Positions 1,282 through 37,060 of a stretch of 64,000 nt of DNA are shown piece by piece. Position 1 is the first letter of the stretch; every line of letters begins with the position of its first letter. Source of the DNA: an uncultured Mycoplasmatota bacterium (GTDB lineage: Bacteria > Bacillota_I > Bacilli_A > RF39 > UBA660); contig CANPPW010000001.1 of the NCBI GenBank assembly GCA_947576095.1, forward strand, positions 5,109-69,108, read 5' to 3'. The notes under the pieces are model-generated. The model was not told the origin of the DNA, made no database searches, and saw nothing but the letters and a program-made list of their open reading frames with translations. A program made the translations under genes and the position numbers.

Positions 1282-2196
1282 ATGAAAAATATAGTGCTAA
1301 AAACAAATGAATTAACTAAAAAGTATAAGAATTTTATTGCCCTGGATAAAGTAAACCTTACTATTGAAAAAGGTGATATTTATGGGCTTATAGGGAGGAA
1401 TGGGGCTGGAAAAACAACACTTATGAAAATCATTTCTACTTTGTCTAGTAAAACTGATGGTGAATTTGAATTATTTGAATGTAATAATAAAAATGCATCA
1501 GAAGTGAAACGAAGAATTGGATGTTTGATTGAAAATCCAGCATTTTATCCCAATATGAGTGCTTATGATAATTTAAAATATTATGCAATTCAAAAGGGAA
1601 TTGTAGATATAAATCAAATTAATGAGGCATTAAAATTAGTAGGATTAGAAAATGTTAAAAAGAAGAAATTTAAAAATTTTTCATTAGGAATGAAACAAAG
1701 ATTAGCAATTGCCCTTGCTGTTATGGATCATCCAGATTTTATAATTCTTGATGAACCAATTAATGGGCTGGATCCTATTGGAATTAGTGATTTAAGGAAT
1801 ACTTTTAAAACATTAAATGAACAAAGAGGTATTACTATTCTTATATCGAGTCATATTTTGTCAGAATTATATGCACTTGCAACAAAATTTTGCATTATAG
1901 AACATGGAAAAGTTATAAAAGAATTAACCAAAGAAGAATTGGATTTAGAATGCAGTAAATGTATTTGTATTAAAACAGATGATACAAAAAAGGCAGCAAT
2001 TATATTGGAAAAAGAATTAAAAACTACCAATTATAAGGTAATTGATCAAAGAGAAATCAGATTATATGATTATCTAGATCATGCCAATCAAGTAAATAAA
2101 GCACTTGCAACAAATGATGTAAATGTTATGAGTATTATTGAGACAGGAATATCCTTAGAAGACTACTTTATAACCATTCTTAAGGAGGCAAATTAA
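1282..2196 (+). CDS. ABC transporter ATP-binding protein (bacitracin/lantibiotic-export type)
   Basis: Walker A GRNGAGKTT, signature LSLGMKQRL, Walker B ILDEP; RBS GGAAGGAG. Confidence 0.9.
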   Translation: MKNIVLKTNELTKKYKNFIALDKVNLTIEKGDIYGLIGRNGAGKTTLMKIISTLSSKTDGEFELFECNNKNASEVKRRIGCLIENPAFYPNMSAYDNLKYYAIQKGIVDINQINEALKLVGLENVKKKKFKNFSLGMKQRLAIALAVMDHPDFIILDEPINGLDPIGISDLRNTFKTLNEQRGITILISSHILSELYALATKFCIIEHGKVIKELTKEELDLECSKCICIKTDDTKKAAIILEKELKTTNYKVIDQREIRLYDYLDHANQVNKALATNDVNVMSIIETGISLEDYFITILKEAN

Positions 2197-2197
2197 A

Positions 2198-3034
2198 ATG
2201 TTAAATATGTTCAAATCGGATTTATATAGAATTTTGAAAGGAAAAGCAATCTATGTAACTTTCTTTGTGATTGTGATTATGTCACTTGTAAGTTGTATAG
2301 GTATGAGTGCAGGCCATATTGGACTTTCGACAGGAGCAAGTAATATAAATATGGAAGATCCTCAATTTGTATTAGAATTAAGTAGGGCCAATAGTTTAAA
2401 AGAAGTAAGAGAAGTTATGACAAGAAAAGGGGCTTTTCCGTTAGATAAAGATATTATTTCTCAAAATAATAATTTATATTATATGTTTATTATTATCATT
2501 GTAATTGTTATTACTACTGATTTTTCAAATAAGACAATAAAAAATACACTTTCATCAGCAGTTTCTAGAAAAAAGTATTATTTTTCAAAAGCATTGTTAG
2601 TATTATTTTTAGCAACCATCATGATACTATTTAATAATTATTTATCTTATTTTTTAAATTATTGGATTAATGGTAAAGAGTTTACAACTTCATTTTTAGA
2701 ATTTTCAAAACTCACAATCATTCAACTTCCATTATTATATGGTATAGTGAGTTTGCTTATTTGTTTTGCTTTTGTATTTAAAAAGACATCCTTATTTAAT
2801 ACAGTTTCTATTCCATTTATCATGATTACACAGTTAATTGTTATCATAATCACAAATCTATTTAAATTAAAAGCAAACTGGTTTTATGAGTATGAATTCC
2901 AATTTGCTCTTGAAAAGATAGTAAATCATCCCAATAATAAATACTTAATATCTATTATGATACTTGGATGTATGTATGTTTTGTTATTTAATGTAATAGG
3001 ATATTATTCATTTCATAAAACAGAAATAAAATAG
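2198..3034 (+). CDS. ABC-2 type permease partner of the upstream ATPase
   Basis: about 6 TM helices; translationally coupled (2-nt gap) to the ATPase. Confidence 0.7.
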   Translation: MLNMFKSDLYRILKGKAIYVTFFVIVIMSLVSCIGMSAGHIGLSTGASNINMEDPQFVLELSRANSLKEVREVMTRKGAFPLDKDIISQNNNLYYMFIIIIVIVITTDFSNKTIKNTLSSAVSRKKYYFSKALLVLFLATIMILFNNYLSYFLNYWINGKEFTTSFLEFSKLTIIQLPLLYGIVSLLICFAFVFKKTSLFNTVSIPFIMITQLIVIIITNLFKLKANWFYEYEFQFALEKIVNHPNNKYLISIMILGCMYVLLFNVIGYYSFHKTEIK

Positions 3035-3051: not shown

Positions 3052-3936
3052 ATGATATTTATAATAGGTTTGTTAATCATCATTATCATATTATTATTGA
3101 TCTATCTTTTTTCTATCAAAAAGGAATTAATACGCATTAAAAAGGAAATCATTTTTTTGAAAAAGAATGATACCAATATTTATATTCATAAAGAATTATC
3201 TGTAAGGGAATTAAATCATTTAATTGAAGAAATCAATAAATTCATTAGGGATTATAACCATAAAAGACAAGAATTTGAAAATAAAAATAAGAAATTAAAA
3301 AAAATAATGATCAATATATCACATGATTTAAGAACACCTTTGACATCAGCTCTTGGATATATAGATATTGTTGTAAATGATAATTTATCAAAGAAAGAGC
3401 AAGAAAAGAACTTGAAAATTATCGAAAAAAGATTACAAAGATTAGATGAATTGATTGATTCGTTTTTTGAATTTTCTAAAATAGTATTGAATAATAAAAA
3501 GATAGAACAATCAAAAGTGAATTTGATTGGTATTGTTGAGGAATGTATAGCTCATTATTATGATGATTTTAGAAAACAAAACAGAAATATTATTTTAACA
3601 AAAAATATTTCTAAACATGATGTATTCACCAATAGAAATATGTTTATTAGAATATTAGATAATATAATTAGTAATGCATACAAACATAGCATAGGGGATC
3701 TTAGTATCTGTATTACTCAAAAAAATAAATTAGAAATCAAATTTTCTAATAAAGTATTAGAAGATTATTTAGATATAGAGCACATTTTTGATGAATTTTA
3801 TACTACAGATATATCTAGGACTAAAGGAAATACGGGTCTAGGACTAGCAATTGTAAAAGAATTTGTAGAGAACCTAGGAGGAAATATTGTTGCTAGAAAA
3901 AGGAATGATGAATTACATATCATATTAAAATTTTAA
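3052..3936 (+). CDS. intramembrane-sensing histidine kinase (short N-terminal TM, no extracellular domain)
   Basis: H-box ISHDLRTPLTSALGY, N/G boxes (GLGLAIVKEFVENLGG); forms an RR-ABC-ABC-HK cassette typical of peptide-antibiotic resistance modules. Confidence 0.85.
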   Translation: MIFIIGLLIIIIILLLIYLFSIKKELIRIKKEIIFLKKNDTNIYIHKELSVRELNHLIEEINKFIRDYNHKRQEFENKNKKLKKIMINISHDLRTPLTSALGYIDIVVNDNLSKKEQEKNLKIIEKRLQRLDELIDSFFEFSKIVLNNKKIEQSKVNLIGIVEECIAHYYDDFRKQNRNIILTKNISKHDVFTNRNMFIRILDNIISNAYKHSIGDLSICITQKNKLEIKFSNKVLEDYLDIEHIFDEFYTTDISRTKGNTGLGLAIVKEFVENLGGNIVARKRNDELHIILKF

Positions 3937-4094
3937 GGTATGCTTTTCAAGGAATATATTGTATAACAATGAAAAGGAAGAAAAGGGAATTGCGTATTTG
4001 TGCTCTTTTTTAGCTATAAAAAAGCAAGTTTAACCTAAATTATGATAGAAAACACTTTCAAAAGTTTGAATGAATATTATATTACACAATAAAA

Positions 4095-31974: not shown

Positions 31975-32871
31975 TTATGAAAACCTCTTTTTGATTTCAT
32001 ATATTAAAATATTTACAAAATCTATCATGACTAATGAAAATAAAAAATAGCATATATATCCCAACATTTTAAGTGGGATCTCATACCAAATAGTACAAGA
32101 ATAAAGCTTAATTTCTCTTAAAATATAAGGTCTTTTAGAATGATTACATAAATACCAGATATTTATACAAAGTAAAATAAAATTCAGTATATATAACAAA
32201 ACTGTAAAATCAAGCATAGAATTTTTAGTACCTATCATAATCTTTTGATCTTTAGGTTTCTTAACAATCTTTTCATCTAATTTTTGCTTTTGGATCTCTT
32301 TTCCATAATAATCTACAACTATTTTATATTTAATTTTTTTAACACCATTTTCTCCTTTTTGAATCGTTCTCTCTTCACCTTCTTGTAATGCATGGTCAAA
32401 CTGATATGCAGTGCGAAAAGAGAGTGTTTGATTTTGAACAATTATGGCCATATAAGTACAACTTTTATCTTCTATATTGGCAGATGCATCATAATTATTT
32501 GCTTTCTTATCCATGCAACCTGGCTTTTTAGCTACACAACTTCCATCATCTAGATTGGCTTTTTCATTATAATTTAATGCATTCTTATCCATACAACCAT
32601 AAATATTATAATTACAAGAACCATCATCCACCTCAGCTAGAGGATCATAATTCGTGGCCTCTTTATTCATACATCCTCTTCTTACGATTTCTCTTTTATT
32701 CGGTTCCTTTACTTGCATGCATGATTTTTCATAAGCAATCGTTTCATCTTTGCATATTGCATACCCCTCTTCTGTATATGTTCCCATAAGACCTCCCTGT
32801 TGCTCACAACAAGCAAATACAGAACAAGGAAAAAATATAAAAATAGTACAAACATATATTATTTTTTTCAT
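31975..32871 (-). CDS. surface protein: signal peptide, three tandem 21-aa Cys repeats (GCMDxxAxNYxxxAxxDDGSC), G5 domain, 2 C-terminal TM
   Basis: AAGGAG RBS; repeats GCMNKEATNYDPLAEVDDGSC / GCMDKNALNYNEKANLDDGSC / GCMDKKANNYDASANIEDKSC; G5-like ERTIQKGENGVKKIKYKIVVDYYGKE...IMIGTK. Confidence 0.5.
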   Translation of the reverse strand: MKKIIYVCTIFIFFPCSVFACCEQQGGLMGTYTEEGYAICKDETIAYEKSCMQVKEPNKREIVRRGCMNKEATNYDPLAEVDDGSCNYNIYGCMDKNALNYNEKANLDDGSCVAKKPGCMDKKANNYDASANIEDKSCTYMAIIVQNQTLSFRTAYQFDHALQEGEERTIQKGENGVKKIKYKIVVDYYGKEIQKQKLDEKIVKKPKDQKIMIGTKNSMLDFTVLLYILNFILLCINIWYLCNHSKRPYILREIKLYSCTIWYEIPLKMLGYICYFLFSLVMIDFVNILIYEIKKRFS

Positions 32872-32884
32872 AATAGTTCTCCTT

Positions 32885-32913
32885 AAAAAAACTCGTAATA
32901 TAGTCTTTACGAG
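32885..32913 (-). terminator. hairpin + T run downstream of ttcA (also the 5' leader of the Cys-repeat gene)
   Basis: CTCGTAA-8-TTACGAG followed on the minus strand by TTTTTTT. Confidence 0.45.
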
Positions 32914-33009
32914 CCCTTTTGGATATTGTATCATACTTTAAAATACAAATAACGCCATTCGACAATGTTTGTCTTTTTTTTATAATCATCTTATTATAAT
33001 GCCATATAC

Positions 33010-33843
33010 TTATTGATTATTTTTTTTATATTCTTCTAAAAATACATATCGATCCTTCCCTTTACGGTATCCGATAATAGCATCTAAATTAATATTAGAT
33101 ACACTATTAAAAATATTATCTTCTACATGTGAATTTACTGTACGATAATATTGAATCAAACGTTTCATTTCTCTTCTTTTAGAAAGTTCTTCCTTCTCAT
33201 TCACTTCTTCTGTAAAATGACAAGCACAGTTCAAGAATGTAAATCCACTATTTTTTTGCCAAGCAATAATATTGCTTTCTTTAACAAGATAAAGAGGTCT
33301 AATCAGTTCCATTCCTTTAAAATTGGTACTATGAAGTTTTGGCATCATTGTACGAATTTCACCTGCATAAAACATACTTAACAAAATCGTTTCTAAAACA
33401 TCATCGTAATGATGCCCTAAAGCAATTTTATTACAACCAAGTTCTCTTGCTCTATCATACAAAAACCCCCTTCTCATTTTGGCACATAAATAGCAAGGAC
33501 TACCTTTTGTTTCATTTTTAACAACTTCAAAAATATTAGAATGAAATAGTTGAATAGGAATATTTAATTTTTTAGCATTTTCTAAAATCAATTGATGATT
33601 TTCCTCTTTATAACCAGGATCCATTACAAGAAAAGATAATTCAAAGTGTTTTTTTCCATGCTTTTGCAATTCTTGCATACATTTAGCAAGTAAAAAAGAA
33701 TCTTTACCACCAGAGATACAAACAGCAATTTTATCACCATCTTCAATCATTTGATAGGTATCAATCCCTTTTACAAAAGGTCTCCATATTTCCTTTCGAT
33801 ATTTTTTTATGATACTTCTTTCTATTTCTTGTAAAGATCCCAT
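33010..33843 (-). CDS. ttcA: tRNA 2-thiocytidine biosynthesis protein TtcA (PP-loop ATPase)
   Basis: SGGKDS PP-loop, CYLCAKMRRGFLY and CxxC motifs. Confidence 0.8.
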   Translation of the reverse strand: MGSLQEIERSIIKKYRKEIWRPFVKGIDTYQMIEDGDKIAVCISGGKDSFLLAKCMQELQKHGKKHFELSFLVMDPGYKEENHQLILENAKKLNIPIQLFHSNIFEVVKNETKGSPCYLCAKMRRGFLYDRARELGCNKIALGHHYDDVLETILLSMFYAGEIRTMMPKLHSTNFKGMELIRPLYLVKESNIIAWQKNSGFTFLNCACHFTEEVNEKEELSKRREMKRLIQYYRTVNSHVEDNIFNSVSNINLDAIIGYRKGKDRYVFLEEYKKNNQ

Positions 33844-33856
33844 ATTTCACCTTCTT

Positions 33857-35290
33857 TTAGTATTGAATTCCAAAATATACCATATGTTTAGCTTTTTTAC
33901 CACAACAAACACATACATCACTTAGATTTTCTTCCTCAAATGGAATACATCTCGATTTTGTTCCTCTAATTTCCTTTATTTTCAATTCACAAGCTTCATC
34001 ACCACACCACATTGCTTTAATATAACCAGGATTTGTATAAATGACATTTTCAATTTCTTTCATATTTTTACAAATATATGTTTTTTCAAGATTTCTTTTT
34101 AAAGCTGTTTCAAATAAATTGTTCTGAATTTGATCCATCAGATTATAAATCTTATCTATTACATTTTCTTTCAAGGATAGACATATTTTTTCACTCGTAT
34201 CTCTTCTAGCTACTATTAATTGCTCTTTTTCCAAGTCTTTTGGTCCAATTTCTAAACGAATAGGAATACCAAGCATCTCTGCTTCAGCAAATTTGTATCC
34301 TGGCGATTTATCACTTAAATCTATAAAATTAGAAATATCTGCTCTATCTAATAGAGTATGAATTTCTTCAGCTTTTGCAAAAACACGTTCTTCTTTCCCA
34401 ATTGGCACAATAACAACTTTATATGGGGCAATTTTAGGTGGTAAAACTAGTCCATTGTCATCACTATGAACCATAATAAGTGCTCCAATCATTCTAGTTG
34501 TTGTTCCCCAAGAGGTTTGATAAGCATATTCTAGTTCATTGTTGCGATTACTAAAGGTAATATCAAATGGTTTTGTAAATTTTTGGCCAAAATAATGTGA
34601 AGTTGCTGATTGTAAAGTAATACCATTATACATAAGCGCTTCCACTGTTAGTGTATATTCAGCTCCAGCAAATTTTTCCCTTTCCGTTTTCTTTCCTGTA
34701 ACAACAGGAATTGCCAAAACGTTTTCAAAAAAGTTTTTATATACTTCAAGCATACATCTTGTTTCCTTCTCAGCCTCTTCTGCTGTCTCATGAATCGTAT
34801 GCCCTTCTTGCCATAAAAATTCTCTTGTTCTTAAAAATGGTCTTGTCTCCTTTTCCCATCTTACAACATTACACCATTGATTATAAAGCTTGGGCAAATC
34901 CCTATATGATTTTACAACAGTACTATAATAATCACAAAACAAAGTCTCTGATGTAGGTCTTACACACATCTTCTCTTCTAATACATCGCCACCACCTTCT
35001 GTCACCCAGGCTCCTTCTGGAGCAAATCCTTCTACATGTTCTGCTTCCTTTTTTAATAAAGATTCTGGAATAAAAAGTGGCATATATACGTTTTGATGTC
35101 CCAACTTTTTAAACTCTTTATCTAAAATCTTTTGAATATTTTCCCAAATCGCATATCCATTTGGTTCTAAAATCATACAACCTTTTACATTAGAATATGC
35201 CGCTAGATGGGCATTTCTAACAATATCTGTATACCACTTTGCAAAATCAACATTGCGTGAGGTAATTTTTTTATTTTTTTGTTCTTTCAT
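33857..35290 (-). CDS. proS: prolyl-tRNA synthetase, archaeal/eukaryal-like type (no insertion editing domain)
   Basis: class II motifs, 477 aa, C-terminal Zn-binding Cys cluster typical of the short ProRS form. Confidence 0.9.
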   Translation of the reverse strand: MKEQKNKKITSRNVDFAKWYTDIVRNAHLAAYSNVKGCMILEPNGYAIWENIQKILDKEFKKLGHQNVYMPLFIPESLLKKEAEHVEGFAPEGAWVTEGGGDVLEEKMCVRPTSETLFCDYYSTVVKSYRDLPKLYNQWCNVVRWEKETRPFLRTREFLWQEGHTIHETAEEAEKETRCMLEVYKNFFENVLAIPVVTGKKTEREKFAGAEYTLTVEALMYNGITLQSATSHYFGQKFTKPFDITFSNRNNELEYAYQTSWGTTTRMIGALIMVHSDDNGLVLPPKIAPYKVVIVPIGKEERVFAKAEEIHTLLDRADISNFIDLSDKSPGYKFAEAEMLGIPIRLEIGPKDLEKEQLIVARRDTSEKICLSLKENVIDKIYNLMDQIQNNLFETALKRNLEKTYICKNMKEIENVIYTNPGYIKAMWCGDEACELKIKEIRGTKSRCIPFEEENLSDVCVCCGKKAKHMVYFGIQY

Positions 35291-35724
35291 AAATTCTCCT
35301 TTTTGATCTGGTAAAGTCTATACTGTAAAACATTAGGTTCTACAACTAAATGTTCAGCCCATAGTTTTACATGATTTTCTACATCTATTTCTTTTTCTAA
35401 AATTTGTTTTAGTAAAGAATCTGGCAAAAGTATATACATAGCTGATTTCATAATTTCTATATCTGGTTGATCCTTTAAACAAATCCGTTTATAATACTTT
35501 TCATTTGTAAAGGCATCTAATTGATAATATGCAAGAGCAAGTGCAATTAAAAATCTCTTTTTCGGGACTGACAGGGTGCAATTCACATAAATAAATTTCA
35601 CTACTTTATCATTATCATCTCTAACAATACAAGCAATATCATCATTTCTTGGTTGCTTTTCAATCACTCTAAAACCATACTCTTTTGCTATTTTCATAAT
35701 GGGAACTGGTAAATAATGATTCAT
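35287..35724 (-). CDS. ImmA/IrrE (DUF955)-like protein with a degenerate metal site, translationally coupled to proS
   Basis: IAKEYGFRVIEK...KKRFLIALALAYYQLD aligns to the ImmA block ...RqRFTLAHELGHyllH, but HExxH is replaced by ALALAY; ATGA overlap with proS. Confidence 0.35.
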   Translation of the reverse strand: MNHYLPVPIMKIAKEYGFRVIEKQPRNDDIACIVRDDNDKVVKFIYVNCTLSVPKKRFLIALALAYYQLDAFTNEKYYKRICLKDQPDIEIMKSAMYILLPDSLLKQILEKEIDVENHVKLWAEHLVVEPNVLQYRLYQIKKENL

Positions 35725-35753
35725 ATATACACCCCTTCTAATTACTTACAAAA

Positions 35754-35781
35754 ATTATATCACAAATTCTTATACTTTCAA
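35754..35781 (-). promoter_or_regulatory. sigmaA promoter TTGAAA-N16-TGaTATAAT for the ORF145-proS operon
   Basis: near-consensus hexamers with TG extension about 30 nt upstream of the RBS AGAAGGGG. Confidence 0.45.
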
Positions 35782-35931
35782 AGTTCAATATTTTTAAAAA
35801 AAGACAATAAATTTATATTATGAATTCTAAACATTTGGACGAAAAAAATACCGTGGCACTGCACAGTATTGAAATATACACTTATGAATCCTATAATACT
35901 AAAATCATTTACTTTTATACTACTTAAAAAA

Positions 35932-36510
35932 CTAAATATTTAAACTATATGATTTCCCTTTTTTCTTTAATAATTCCTTTTCATAATTTATAATATCATC
36001 AAAACTATCATACATTTCTTCTAATACTGAATTATGAACACTCTTATGTTTTCTATAATAATCAAATGCTAGACATATATATTCATAAGAAAAAGATTCA
36101 ATCCACTCAATAAATTCTTTTTGCATATCTGCATCAAAATCTATTACATTATAGTAATTGTATCGTTCTAAACTGGGTTTATGTGATTTTCTATCGGTTT
36201 TGGTCTGTGCTTCATTTCTAGACGTTTCCTTTGATATTGTAGATGAATTATTGTCTTCACTAGGAATATCATATCTACCTTTTTCACAAAGTGTTTCATC
36301 GTATAATATCCTTAAATCAGGATTTCTTAGAATTCTATATGCTTCATTTATTTTTTGTATCATTTTATGACAAAATTCATTATTTATACCAGGATTGGCA
36401 TCTGGATGATAGAATATCGCTTTTTGTCTATATGCCATTTTAATTTCTTGTAAGCTCGCATGTTGTGATATACCTAATATTTCATATAAAGTTATCCCTA
36501 TTTCTTTCAT
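35932..36510 (-). CDS. J-domain protein with a unique C-terminal region
   Basis: LYEILGISQHASLQEIKMAYRQKAIFYHPDANPG (HPD motif); no DnaJ Zn-finger or C-terminal substrate-binding domain. Confidence 0.7.
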   Translation of the reverse strand: MKEIGITLYEILGISQHASLQEIKMAYRQKAIFYHPDANPGINNEFCHKMIQKINEAYRILRNPDLRILYDETLCEKGRYDIPSEDNNSSTISKETSRNEAQTKTDRKSHKPSLERYNYYNVIDFDADMQKEFIEWIESFSYEYICLAFDYYRKHKSVHNSVLEEMYDSFDDIINYEKELLKKKGKSYSLNI

Positions 36511-36559
36511 ATAAAATCACACCTCAAAATTCATTTTTATTTTATCAAAAAATCATATA

Positions 36560-37060
36560 TTAATCAATTTTATATATTTTATATTTTTTACTAATGAAAT
36601 CTGTTATAAAGTAAGCACCTATTATATAAATAATATTGGCCATCATCGCTTCTATAACCATTTTAAAACAATCAAAACTAGTCCACTCTATTTTTTCAAT
36701 AATAGATAGTAAAAAATAATAAATAATTCGATAAATACCAATTGTTATAACAGTAAACAAAATCACACTATAAATATGATTATTCCATAGATGATTTAAA
36801 ATCATAATAACAATCCCTAATAGAAAAAAAAGAAAACAATGCATTAATAAAAAATTTGAAAATAAAATATCATAAAGCATTCCATAAAAAATACAAGAAA
36901 ATAAAAAGTAGTTCTTATTTTTAAAATACGGATAGACCAAAATAAGAGCACATATAGCAAATAAAGGTGTGAAATAGCTTTCTATTACTCTTGTAAAATT
37001 ACTAAAAATACTCTGTAAAATGAGTGAAATTGAAAAAATACTAATCACCATATGACTCAT
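36560..37060 (-). CDS. mreD: rod shape-determining protein MreD-like membrane protein
   Basis: about 165 aa, 5 TM, immediately downstream of and overlapping mreC. Confidence 0.55.
   Translation of the reverse strand: MSHMVISIFSISLILQSIFSNFTRVIESYFTPLFAICALILVYPYFKNKNYFLFSCIFYGMLYDILFSNFLLMHCFLFFLLGIVIMILNHLWNNHIYSVILFTVITIGIYRIIYYFLLSIIEKIEWTSFDCFKMVIEAMMANIIYIIGAYFITDFISKKYKIYKID

Follow-up and report, generated by a model that had tools for sequence, protein, structure and literature searches.

A predicted pseudo-protease of the ImmA/IrrE fold is the leading cistron of a proS–ttcA operon in an uncultured low-GC gut lineage

This study concerns ORF145, an open reading frame (ORF) of 145 codons in a 64,000-nt stretch of contig CANPPW010000001.1 (positions 5,109 to 69,108) from an uncultured Mycoplasmatota bacterium. 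The whole of this stretch is referred to as the window, and all plain coordinates refer to it. By sequence, ORF145 is a genuine homologue of the Peptidase_M78 (ImmA/IrrE) metalloproteases with a destroyed HExxH motif, i.e. a pseudo-protease. It is also the first cistron of a predicted operon with the prolyl-tRNA synthetase (ProRS) gene proS and a ttcA-like gene, has a strong sigma-A-type promoter of its own, and carries the start of proS inside its last codons. ImmA/IrrE proteins are signal-activated proteases that destroy the repressors of mobile elements, stress regulons and defence systems. The explanation we favour on balance is that ORF145 is a non-catalytic binding protein of the ImmA/IrrE fold, co-expressed with the tRNA-enzyme operon and having a role tied to the status of tRNA charging or modification.

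The original prediction had aligned the core of ORF145 with the ImmA/IrrE block, and had noted that the HExxH motif is replaced by ALALAY. Both points hold, as profile searches and structure prediction alike place the protein in the M78 (DUF955-type) fold. Pfam family PF06114 (Peptidase_M78) matches residues 37–137 with an E-value of 4.5e-5 (23.7 bits, gathering score 22), and the same family is matched by 7 of the 8 members of the ORF145 family described below (best E-value 4e-8). PHROG 87, a 'metallo-protease', matches over the full length. Alignment of the ORF145 family to 42 HExxH-bearing M78 proteins with hhalign gave a probability of 99.5% over 136 columns (E-value 1.4e-22), and placed RFLIALALAYYQL of the family on RFTIAHELGHYxLH of the active proteins. 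The AlphaFold2 model, based on an alignment of 71 sequences, has a mean pLDDT of 92.6 and a pTM of 0.88. Its best Foldseek matches in the PDB are CapP (7t5t; E-value 1.7e-4, TMq 0.61), IrrE (3dti, 3dte), MtPrpR (6cyy; probability 0.98, TMq 0.55) and PprI (8slm), and in the BFVD library of viral structures they are phage IrrE-like proteins (TM up to 0.73). A sequence search of the PDB with the family profile returned chance matches only. An origin of ORF145 in a defence system was rejected, as PADLOC gave only a weak capP match for the window protein (E-value 0.004) and none for its relatives.

The ORF145 family consists of eight 90% clusters, recovered from 5.8 billion proteins by a word-indexed search with a profile of four family members; the window protein as sole query gave three. 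The clusters form two clades, A (the window protein, P0001, together with P0002, P0003 and P0084) and B (P0009, P0085, P0086 and P0087). When 1.84 billion 50% representatives were searched exhaustively with HMMER, only two full-length clusters and one fragment stood out from the generic M78 background, the fragment being a 54-aa piece of the window protein. No match was obtained in an initial scan of GTDB genomes for the family, nor in JGI metagenomes using protein patterns or the back-translated KRFLxALALAYY pattern, and no relatives were found among the phages of IMG/VR and INPHARED. All known members of the family therefore come from Logan, ENA and a small number of NCBI contigs of metagenome-assembled genomes (MAGs). 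These are low-GC (28%) gut MAGs labelled as Bacilli or Clostridia, of a lineage without a GTDB species representative (best ProRS match 73%).

All eight members have LALAY or LSLAY in place of HExxH (H62L, E63A or, in two, E63S, and H66Y). The third metal ligand, Glu90, is retained in clade A and replaced by N or K in P0086 and P0087. Given that the zinc histidines and the catalytic glutamate are replaced, and that Glu90 has also gone in some members, ORF145 is not expected to work as a zinc metalloprotease. Loss of the zinc site is not rare in this part of the M78 family, since 12 of the 63 nearest proteins outside the ORF145 family are variously degenerate (H-E-H is retained in the other 51). 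The best-conserved segment of the ORF145 family is the former active-site helix, KRFLVALALAYY, and nine polar residues are invariant (N27, C32, D36, N48, K56, R57, Y66, Y67, D85). Some of the latter, for example Cys32, Asp36, Tyr66/67 and Asp85, could be taken to suggest that the protein is still an enzyme, a hydrolase with a different set of catalytic residues, but the metal site is now occupied by hydrophobic or small residues (L, A, Y), P0086 and P0087 have lost the third ligand as well, and we know of no such alternative chemistry for the M78 fold. Continued enzymatic activity is thus highly improbable.

Comparison of the orthologues indicates that ORF145 is a real, lineage-restricted gene under purifying selection. 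Orthologues share 59–70% identity within clade A and 34–40% with those of clade B. Ratios of non-synonymous to synonymous substitution (dN/dS) are 0.06–0.3 within clades (0.057 for L002/L096; 0.22 for L086/L091, at a dS of 0.43), compared with about 0.04–0.24 for proS and ttcA in the same genomes. ORF145 evolves 2–3 times faster than its neighbours yet is clearly constrained. This faster evolution would suit a domesticated relic acting only in cis, i.e. the leftover ImmA gene of a decayed mobile element, the protein being functionless and the promoter, the translation and the embedded Shine–Dalgarno (SD) sequence serving to drive proS. The extreme narrowness of the family would suit it too, as would the assignment of both the promoter and the proS SD to the ORF145 unit, and the C-terminal tail, which is variable except for the embedded SD. 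We consider such a relic unlikely, however. The dN/dS values are well below 1, the core helix is invariant, the fold is predicted with high confidence, and the base composition of ORF145 matches that of its surroundings. Mobile-element genes are not found nearby in the window, in keeping with the lack of relatives in the phage collections, and the clade B ORF, an internal cistron with no promoter to contribute, has been retained all the same.

The gene order in clade A is always promoter–ORF–proS–ttcA, with an overlap of 4 or 11 nt between ORF and proS, and the TG(A/G)TATAAT box is kept at all four loci (window, L001, L002, L096). The flanks upstream vary: radC-mreC-mreD-J-domain precedes the operon of the window, and APendo-hydrolase-113 aa that of L002. 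Clade B has the order Obg-APendo-ORF-ttcA-pilin-like, with gaps of 9–14 nt and no proS between ORF and ttcA (contigs L085–L095, e.g. L086 209–1039 / 1050–1502 / 1512–2333); these contigs are too short to show the position of proS. The clade B APendo gene encodes a xylose-isomerase-like TIM barrel. In a further assembly of the same species as the window (L097, 2435–3817), the gene following ORF145 codes for 460 aa without a Pfam match rather than for the 477-aa ProRS, and may be an assembly or frameshift variant. The proS product of the window scores 575.8 bits against TIGR00408 (cut-off 437) and has the tRNA-synt_2b class II core, HGTP_anticodon and ProRS-C_1 domains but no insertion domain, which agrees with the short, archaeal-like form without an insertion editing domain described in the original prediction. 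The product of the ttcA-like gene carries a PF01171 domain and has TtcA as its best NCBIfam match (203 bits, under the cut-off of 272); TtcA is a tRNA 2-thiocytidine synthetase.

The presence or absence of proS in these operons bears directly on the proposal, made in the original prediction, that ORF145 is a dedicated, co-translated accessory of ProRS. Such a protein would bind ProRS, be produced in a fixed ratio to it by way of translational coupling, and either tune aminoacylation or stand in for the absent editing domain, and the ATGA overlap, the proS SD inside ORF145, and the ProRS without an editing domain are all as would be expected. The pairing is also retained in four clusters despite their differing upstream context. 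These four are closely related (59–100% identical) and are the only ones in which the pair was found: among GTDB species representatives, no M78-like ORF is present at any of the 80 nearest proS loci (ProRS 64–73% identical). The ttcA gene was likewise not seen in the flanks of these 80 loci (up to 5 kb where the contig permits), apart from an opposite-strand copy in L037. A special form of ProRS in the ORF-bearing genomes was rejected, as the enzyme has no clade-specific indels and just 3 conservative private substitutions. Similarity of ORF145 to YbaK/ProX deacylases was not detected (Pfam at E-values up to 1 gave M78 and two chance matches; NCBIfam gave nothing), and a metal-less M78 fold offers no obvious deacylase chemistry. 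Since the orthologues of clade B directly precede ttcA where proS is absent, ORF145 is not a ProRS-specific subunit. The conserved pairing thus stands for the four clade A clusters and fails for the nearest GTDB loci and for clade B; a general accessory of ProRS is refuted, what remains is a narrow, lineage-specific operon arrangement, and even there a fixed-ratio ProRS partner is improbable. A generalised form of the accessory idea has gained some support from a second family of dead M78 proteins, coupled to tyrS (see below).

Regulation by a T-box was also considered. A scan of nt 33500–36600 with Rfam, including the T-box family, produced no family even at E-values up to 10, in agreement with the original prediction, and a T-box or other riboswitch in the 207-nt region upstream of ORF145 was rejected. 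An upstream T-box is lacking at all 13 related proS loci as well (0/13), so that its lack is not special to this locus, and the idea that ORF145 replaces a T-box of its relatives was rejected. At one related locus, L010, a full T-box (109 bits) closely follows proS and presumably controls the gene after it. Several related MAGs (L051, L056, L059, L061, L066, L073) carry a second class II aminoacyl-tRNA synthetase (aaRS) ORF directly after proS or within about 1.1 kb of it; the two that were checked with NCBIfam, L059 (6432–7811) and L061, are glyS, dimeric glycine-tRNA ligase (about 624–627 bits).

The gene that stays linked to the ORF145 family in both clades is ttcA. It lies in the ORF operon wherever the region beyond the ORF can be seen (window, L001, L002, L096 and L086–L093). 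The identity of TtcA between the clades, 71–79%, is close to that found inside clade A, which indicates that clades A and B are close relatives with proS either present or absent between ORF and ttcA. It could be argued from this that ORF and ttcA are the true pair, ORF145 being a partner of TtcA and proS having been inserted between the two in clade A. The linkage persists while the flanks change, both upstream (DnaJ/mreCD, APendo/hydrolase or Obg/APendo) and downstream (G5 or pilin-like). It is seen in a single lineage, however, and may be inherited; TtcA-like genes are widespread, as against two 50% ORF clusters in 1.8 billion representatives, and the tyrS-linked dead M78 family has no ttcA alongside. 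A specific partnership with TtcA is, accordingly, unlikely.

This second family is represented by P0022, an M78 protein 26% identical to ORF145, in which HExxH is missing and FEVAYLIALYIL stands in its place. Its gene is located directly 5' of tyrS (TIGR00234, 354 bits), which it overlaps by ATGA, and its final codons contain an AAGGAGG box, a layout shared with ORF145–proS. Its relatives P0088 (63% identical) and P0089 (52%) extend the tyrS pairing to six further contigs (Table 1). No ttcA gene was found beside the tyrS-linked genes. The pair is preceded by a TTGAC-17-TAAAAT promoter and a reduced T-box-like leader, which matches RF00230 with 53.2 bits (E-value 3e-11). The shortening of stem I to about 30 nt keeps the match under the gathering score of 93, and standard annotation would miss the leader for that reason. 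The GA motif is retained, as are a loop containing UAC, the T-box sequence GGUGGUACCGUGG, and a terminator with a U-run. Genes of mobile-element type occur in the surroundings of these pairs: L107 has a gene for a 148-aa protein with two HTH_3 domains convergent to tyrS (1871–2317, minus strand), and L109 and L110 have a phage-type integrase and an HTH_26 gene about 3 kb downstream (L109 8712–10525, minus strand).

The relationship of the two dead families was also examined. In the reverse ranking by HMM, members of the ORF145 family come first by a small margin, which slightly favours a sister relationship, but profile comparison does not show one: hhalign gives an E-value of 2e-10 between the two families and E-values of 1e-9 and 1.4e-22 against the active M78 proteins. 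The residues in place of H, E and H differ as well, being L-A-Y in the ORF145 family and Y-L-L in the tyrS-linked family.

The association of ORF145 with tRNA charging or modification is inferred from gene position, as its family is always found directly 5' of proS or ttcA, both of them genes of ATP-dependent enzymes that handle tRNA, and the second family likewise of tyrS. A random gene has, by rough estimate rather than computation, a few-percent chance of lying directly 5' of a gene for a tRNA-handling enzyme, and such adjacency in 2 independent contexts among the 3 dead M78 families inspected is suggestive but is not proof. Under the favoured reading, ORF145 would bind, but not cleave, a partner in what used to be the substrate groove, and would thus act stoichiometrically, its dose following the expression of the tRNA-enzyme operon. 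A direct protein–protein interface common to the enzymes is unlikely, because there is no fold common to ProRS (class II), TyrRS (class I) and TtcA (PP-loop); what they do share is tRNA, and an expression that tracks translational demand. The natural ligands of the M78 fold are XRE-type repressors, which favours a non-cleaving binder, and one possibility is an anti-repressor or adaptor with a logic comparable to that of Anti-TRAP under T-box control. Action on the enzymes or on tRNA would be the more novel alternative.

Several observations weigh against a binding protein with a role in tRNA charging or modification. The unrelated folds of the three enzymes do so if one shared mode of direct binding is supposed. 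Clades A and B are fairly close, so the ORF–ttcA linkage could be inherited synteny, and profile comparison does not make the proS/ttcA-linked and tyrS-linked families each other's closest kin. The link to tRNA enzymes is seen in two of the three dead families inspected; the third, P0027, has no tRNA-enzyme neighbour. Lastly, no XRE or helix–turn–helix (HTH) repressor gene of the ImmR, DdrO or CapH type is adjacent to ORF145 in the window or at the orthologous loci, where the neighbours are APendo, the hydrolase, the 113-aa protein, proS and ttcA. A more far-reaching proposal is that dead ImmA/IrrE-fold proteins form an undescribed class, leading the tRNA-enzyme operons of low-GC gut Bacilli as translationally coupled cistrons and linking the status of tRNA charging or modification to another process, whether through contact with tRNA or the enzymes or through sequestration of an XRE-type repressor that stays uncleaved. 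At present this proposal is doubtful. In the literature, no report was found of M78/DUF955 genes in aaRS operons, and a review of pseudo-metallopeptidases leaves M78 unmentioned.

Of the known systems, ORF145 most resembles ImmA (ICEBs1 and phage anti-repressor proteases) and the proteins of PHROG 87, which are likewise single-domain M78 proteins of about 150–170 aa and share its order of motifs (PV..IA..G..V, ..VN, RxRFTIAHELxHY, ExEANxFAAxLLMP and LAxxFxVS...R). ORF145 differs in having LALAY for HExxH, no adjacent ImmR/XRE gene, a housekeeping context, and no relatives in phage collections. The fold of the protease domain is also common to IrrE/PprI of Deinococcus and the CBASS-associated protease CapP, but these are active zinc proteases with an extra C-terminal GAF-like sensor domain and cognate repressors (DdrO and CapH, respectively), whereas ORF145 lacks metal site, sensor domain and repressor neighbour. 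A non-proteolytic version of the fold has been described in MtPrpR, where the HExxH residues are not conserved and coenzyme A (CoA) is bound in the corresponding cavity (PMC6765138). The IrrE-like domain of PrpR/ScfR is thus a precedent for a ligand-binding module without HExxH, although the resemblance stops at the fold: PrpR, at about 486 aa, also has an XRE HTH, a GAF-like domain, a [4Fe4S] cluster and CoA, and ORF145 is the bare 145-aa domain. Anti-TRAP (rtpA) of Bacillus subtilis is a small regulator that acts by binding rather than by catalysis and whose synthesis is tied to tRNA charging via a T-box (PMC10327191). The likeness is one of logic only and concerns the tyrS-linked family behind its Tyr T-box; ORF145 has neither homology to Anti-TRAP nor a T-box. 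What is new here is the housekeeping setting, with a pseudo-ImmA/IrrE fixed in the tRNA-enzyme operons of an uncultured low-GC gut lineage, a non-proteolytic IrrE-like fold being already documented.

The arrangement of the locus is summarised in Table 1. The immediate neighbours of ORF145 in the window are proS and a J-domain protein gene, the latter separated from it by 207 nt (35725–35931). This gap contains the terminator of the J-domain gene, predicted to isolate the ORF145 operon, followed by the promoter, which is the best-scoring on the minus strand in the region and leaves a leader of only about 25–30 nt before the start with its ribosome-binding site. The ATGA overlap with proS and the position of ORF145 as first gene behind a TTGAAA-N16-TGaTATAAT promoter, both part of the original prediction, are thereby borne out.

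Table 1. Positions of the ORF145 operon features in the window, and of the dead M78/tyrS loci in other contigs
Feature	Position	Strand	Remarks
Intrinsic terminator of the upstream J-domain gene	35847..35870	-	9-bp stem, 6-nt loop, T-run
Promoter, sigma-70-type, TTGAAA-16 nt-TG-a-TATAAT	35754..35781	-	11/12 match with TG extension
ORF145 ribosome-binding site, GAAGGGG	35732..35738	-	7 nt ahead of ATG; A-G-rich boxes at the equivalent place in orthologues
ORF145	35287..35724	-	145 aa, ATG start, TGA stop; single-domain ImmA/IrrE (Peptidase_M78) fold, catalytically dead by sequence
Former active-site helix, codons 57–67, RFLIALALAYY	35524..35556	-	From alignments; equivalent in active M78 is RFTIAHELxHY
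proS Shine–Dalgarno, AGGAG	35296..35300	-	Inside the last ORF145 codons; same layout in L001 and L002
ATGA overlap, ORF145 stop / proS start	35287..35290	-	Read from sequence
proS	33857..35290	-	477 aa; archaeal/eukaryote-type ProRS without insertion editing domain
ttcA-like PP-loop tRNA thiolase gene	33010..33843	-	277 aa; 13 nt past the end of proS
Dead M78/tyrS pairs	L107 74–571/568–1794; L109 4052–4525/4522–5754; L114 533–1057/1054–2280		Also L110–L113
Reduced T-box leader	L109 3856–4030; L114 about 340–510; L107 1–55		L109 match at 3891–4013; 3' part only in L107

Other features of the window were noted in passing. The J-domain protein (35932–36510, minus strand; 192 aa) has an N-terminal DnaJ domain (66.8 bits), an uncharacterised C-terminal half and its own terminator after the gene, and it precedes ORF145 only in the species of the window. 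Downstream of ttcA is a gene for a 319-aa protein (31975–32934, minus strand), for which NCBIfam gave no family and whose orthologue in L001 is called a G5-domain protein; it contains a Cys-rich repeat of about 24 aa, GCM(D/N)KxAxNY(D/N)xxAxx(D/E)DxSC, three times in tandem. The sole above-threshold Rfam family in the 64-kb window is a ribosomal protein L21 leader (RF00559, 49.5 bits; 58020–58088, minus strand).

A metal-less M78 protein that purifying selection maintains in a housekeeping operon would show that this fold can be reused as a pure binding module. Its recurrence before the genes of three tRNA-handling enzymes, in one case with a T-box in control, hints at a connection, so far unrecognised, between this fold and the control of translation capacity. 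Were that connection one of position only, ORF145 would be an ordinary lineage-specific pseudoenzyme.

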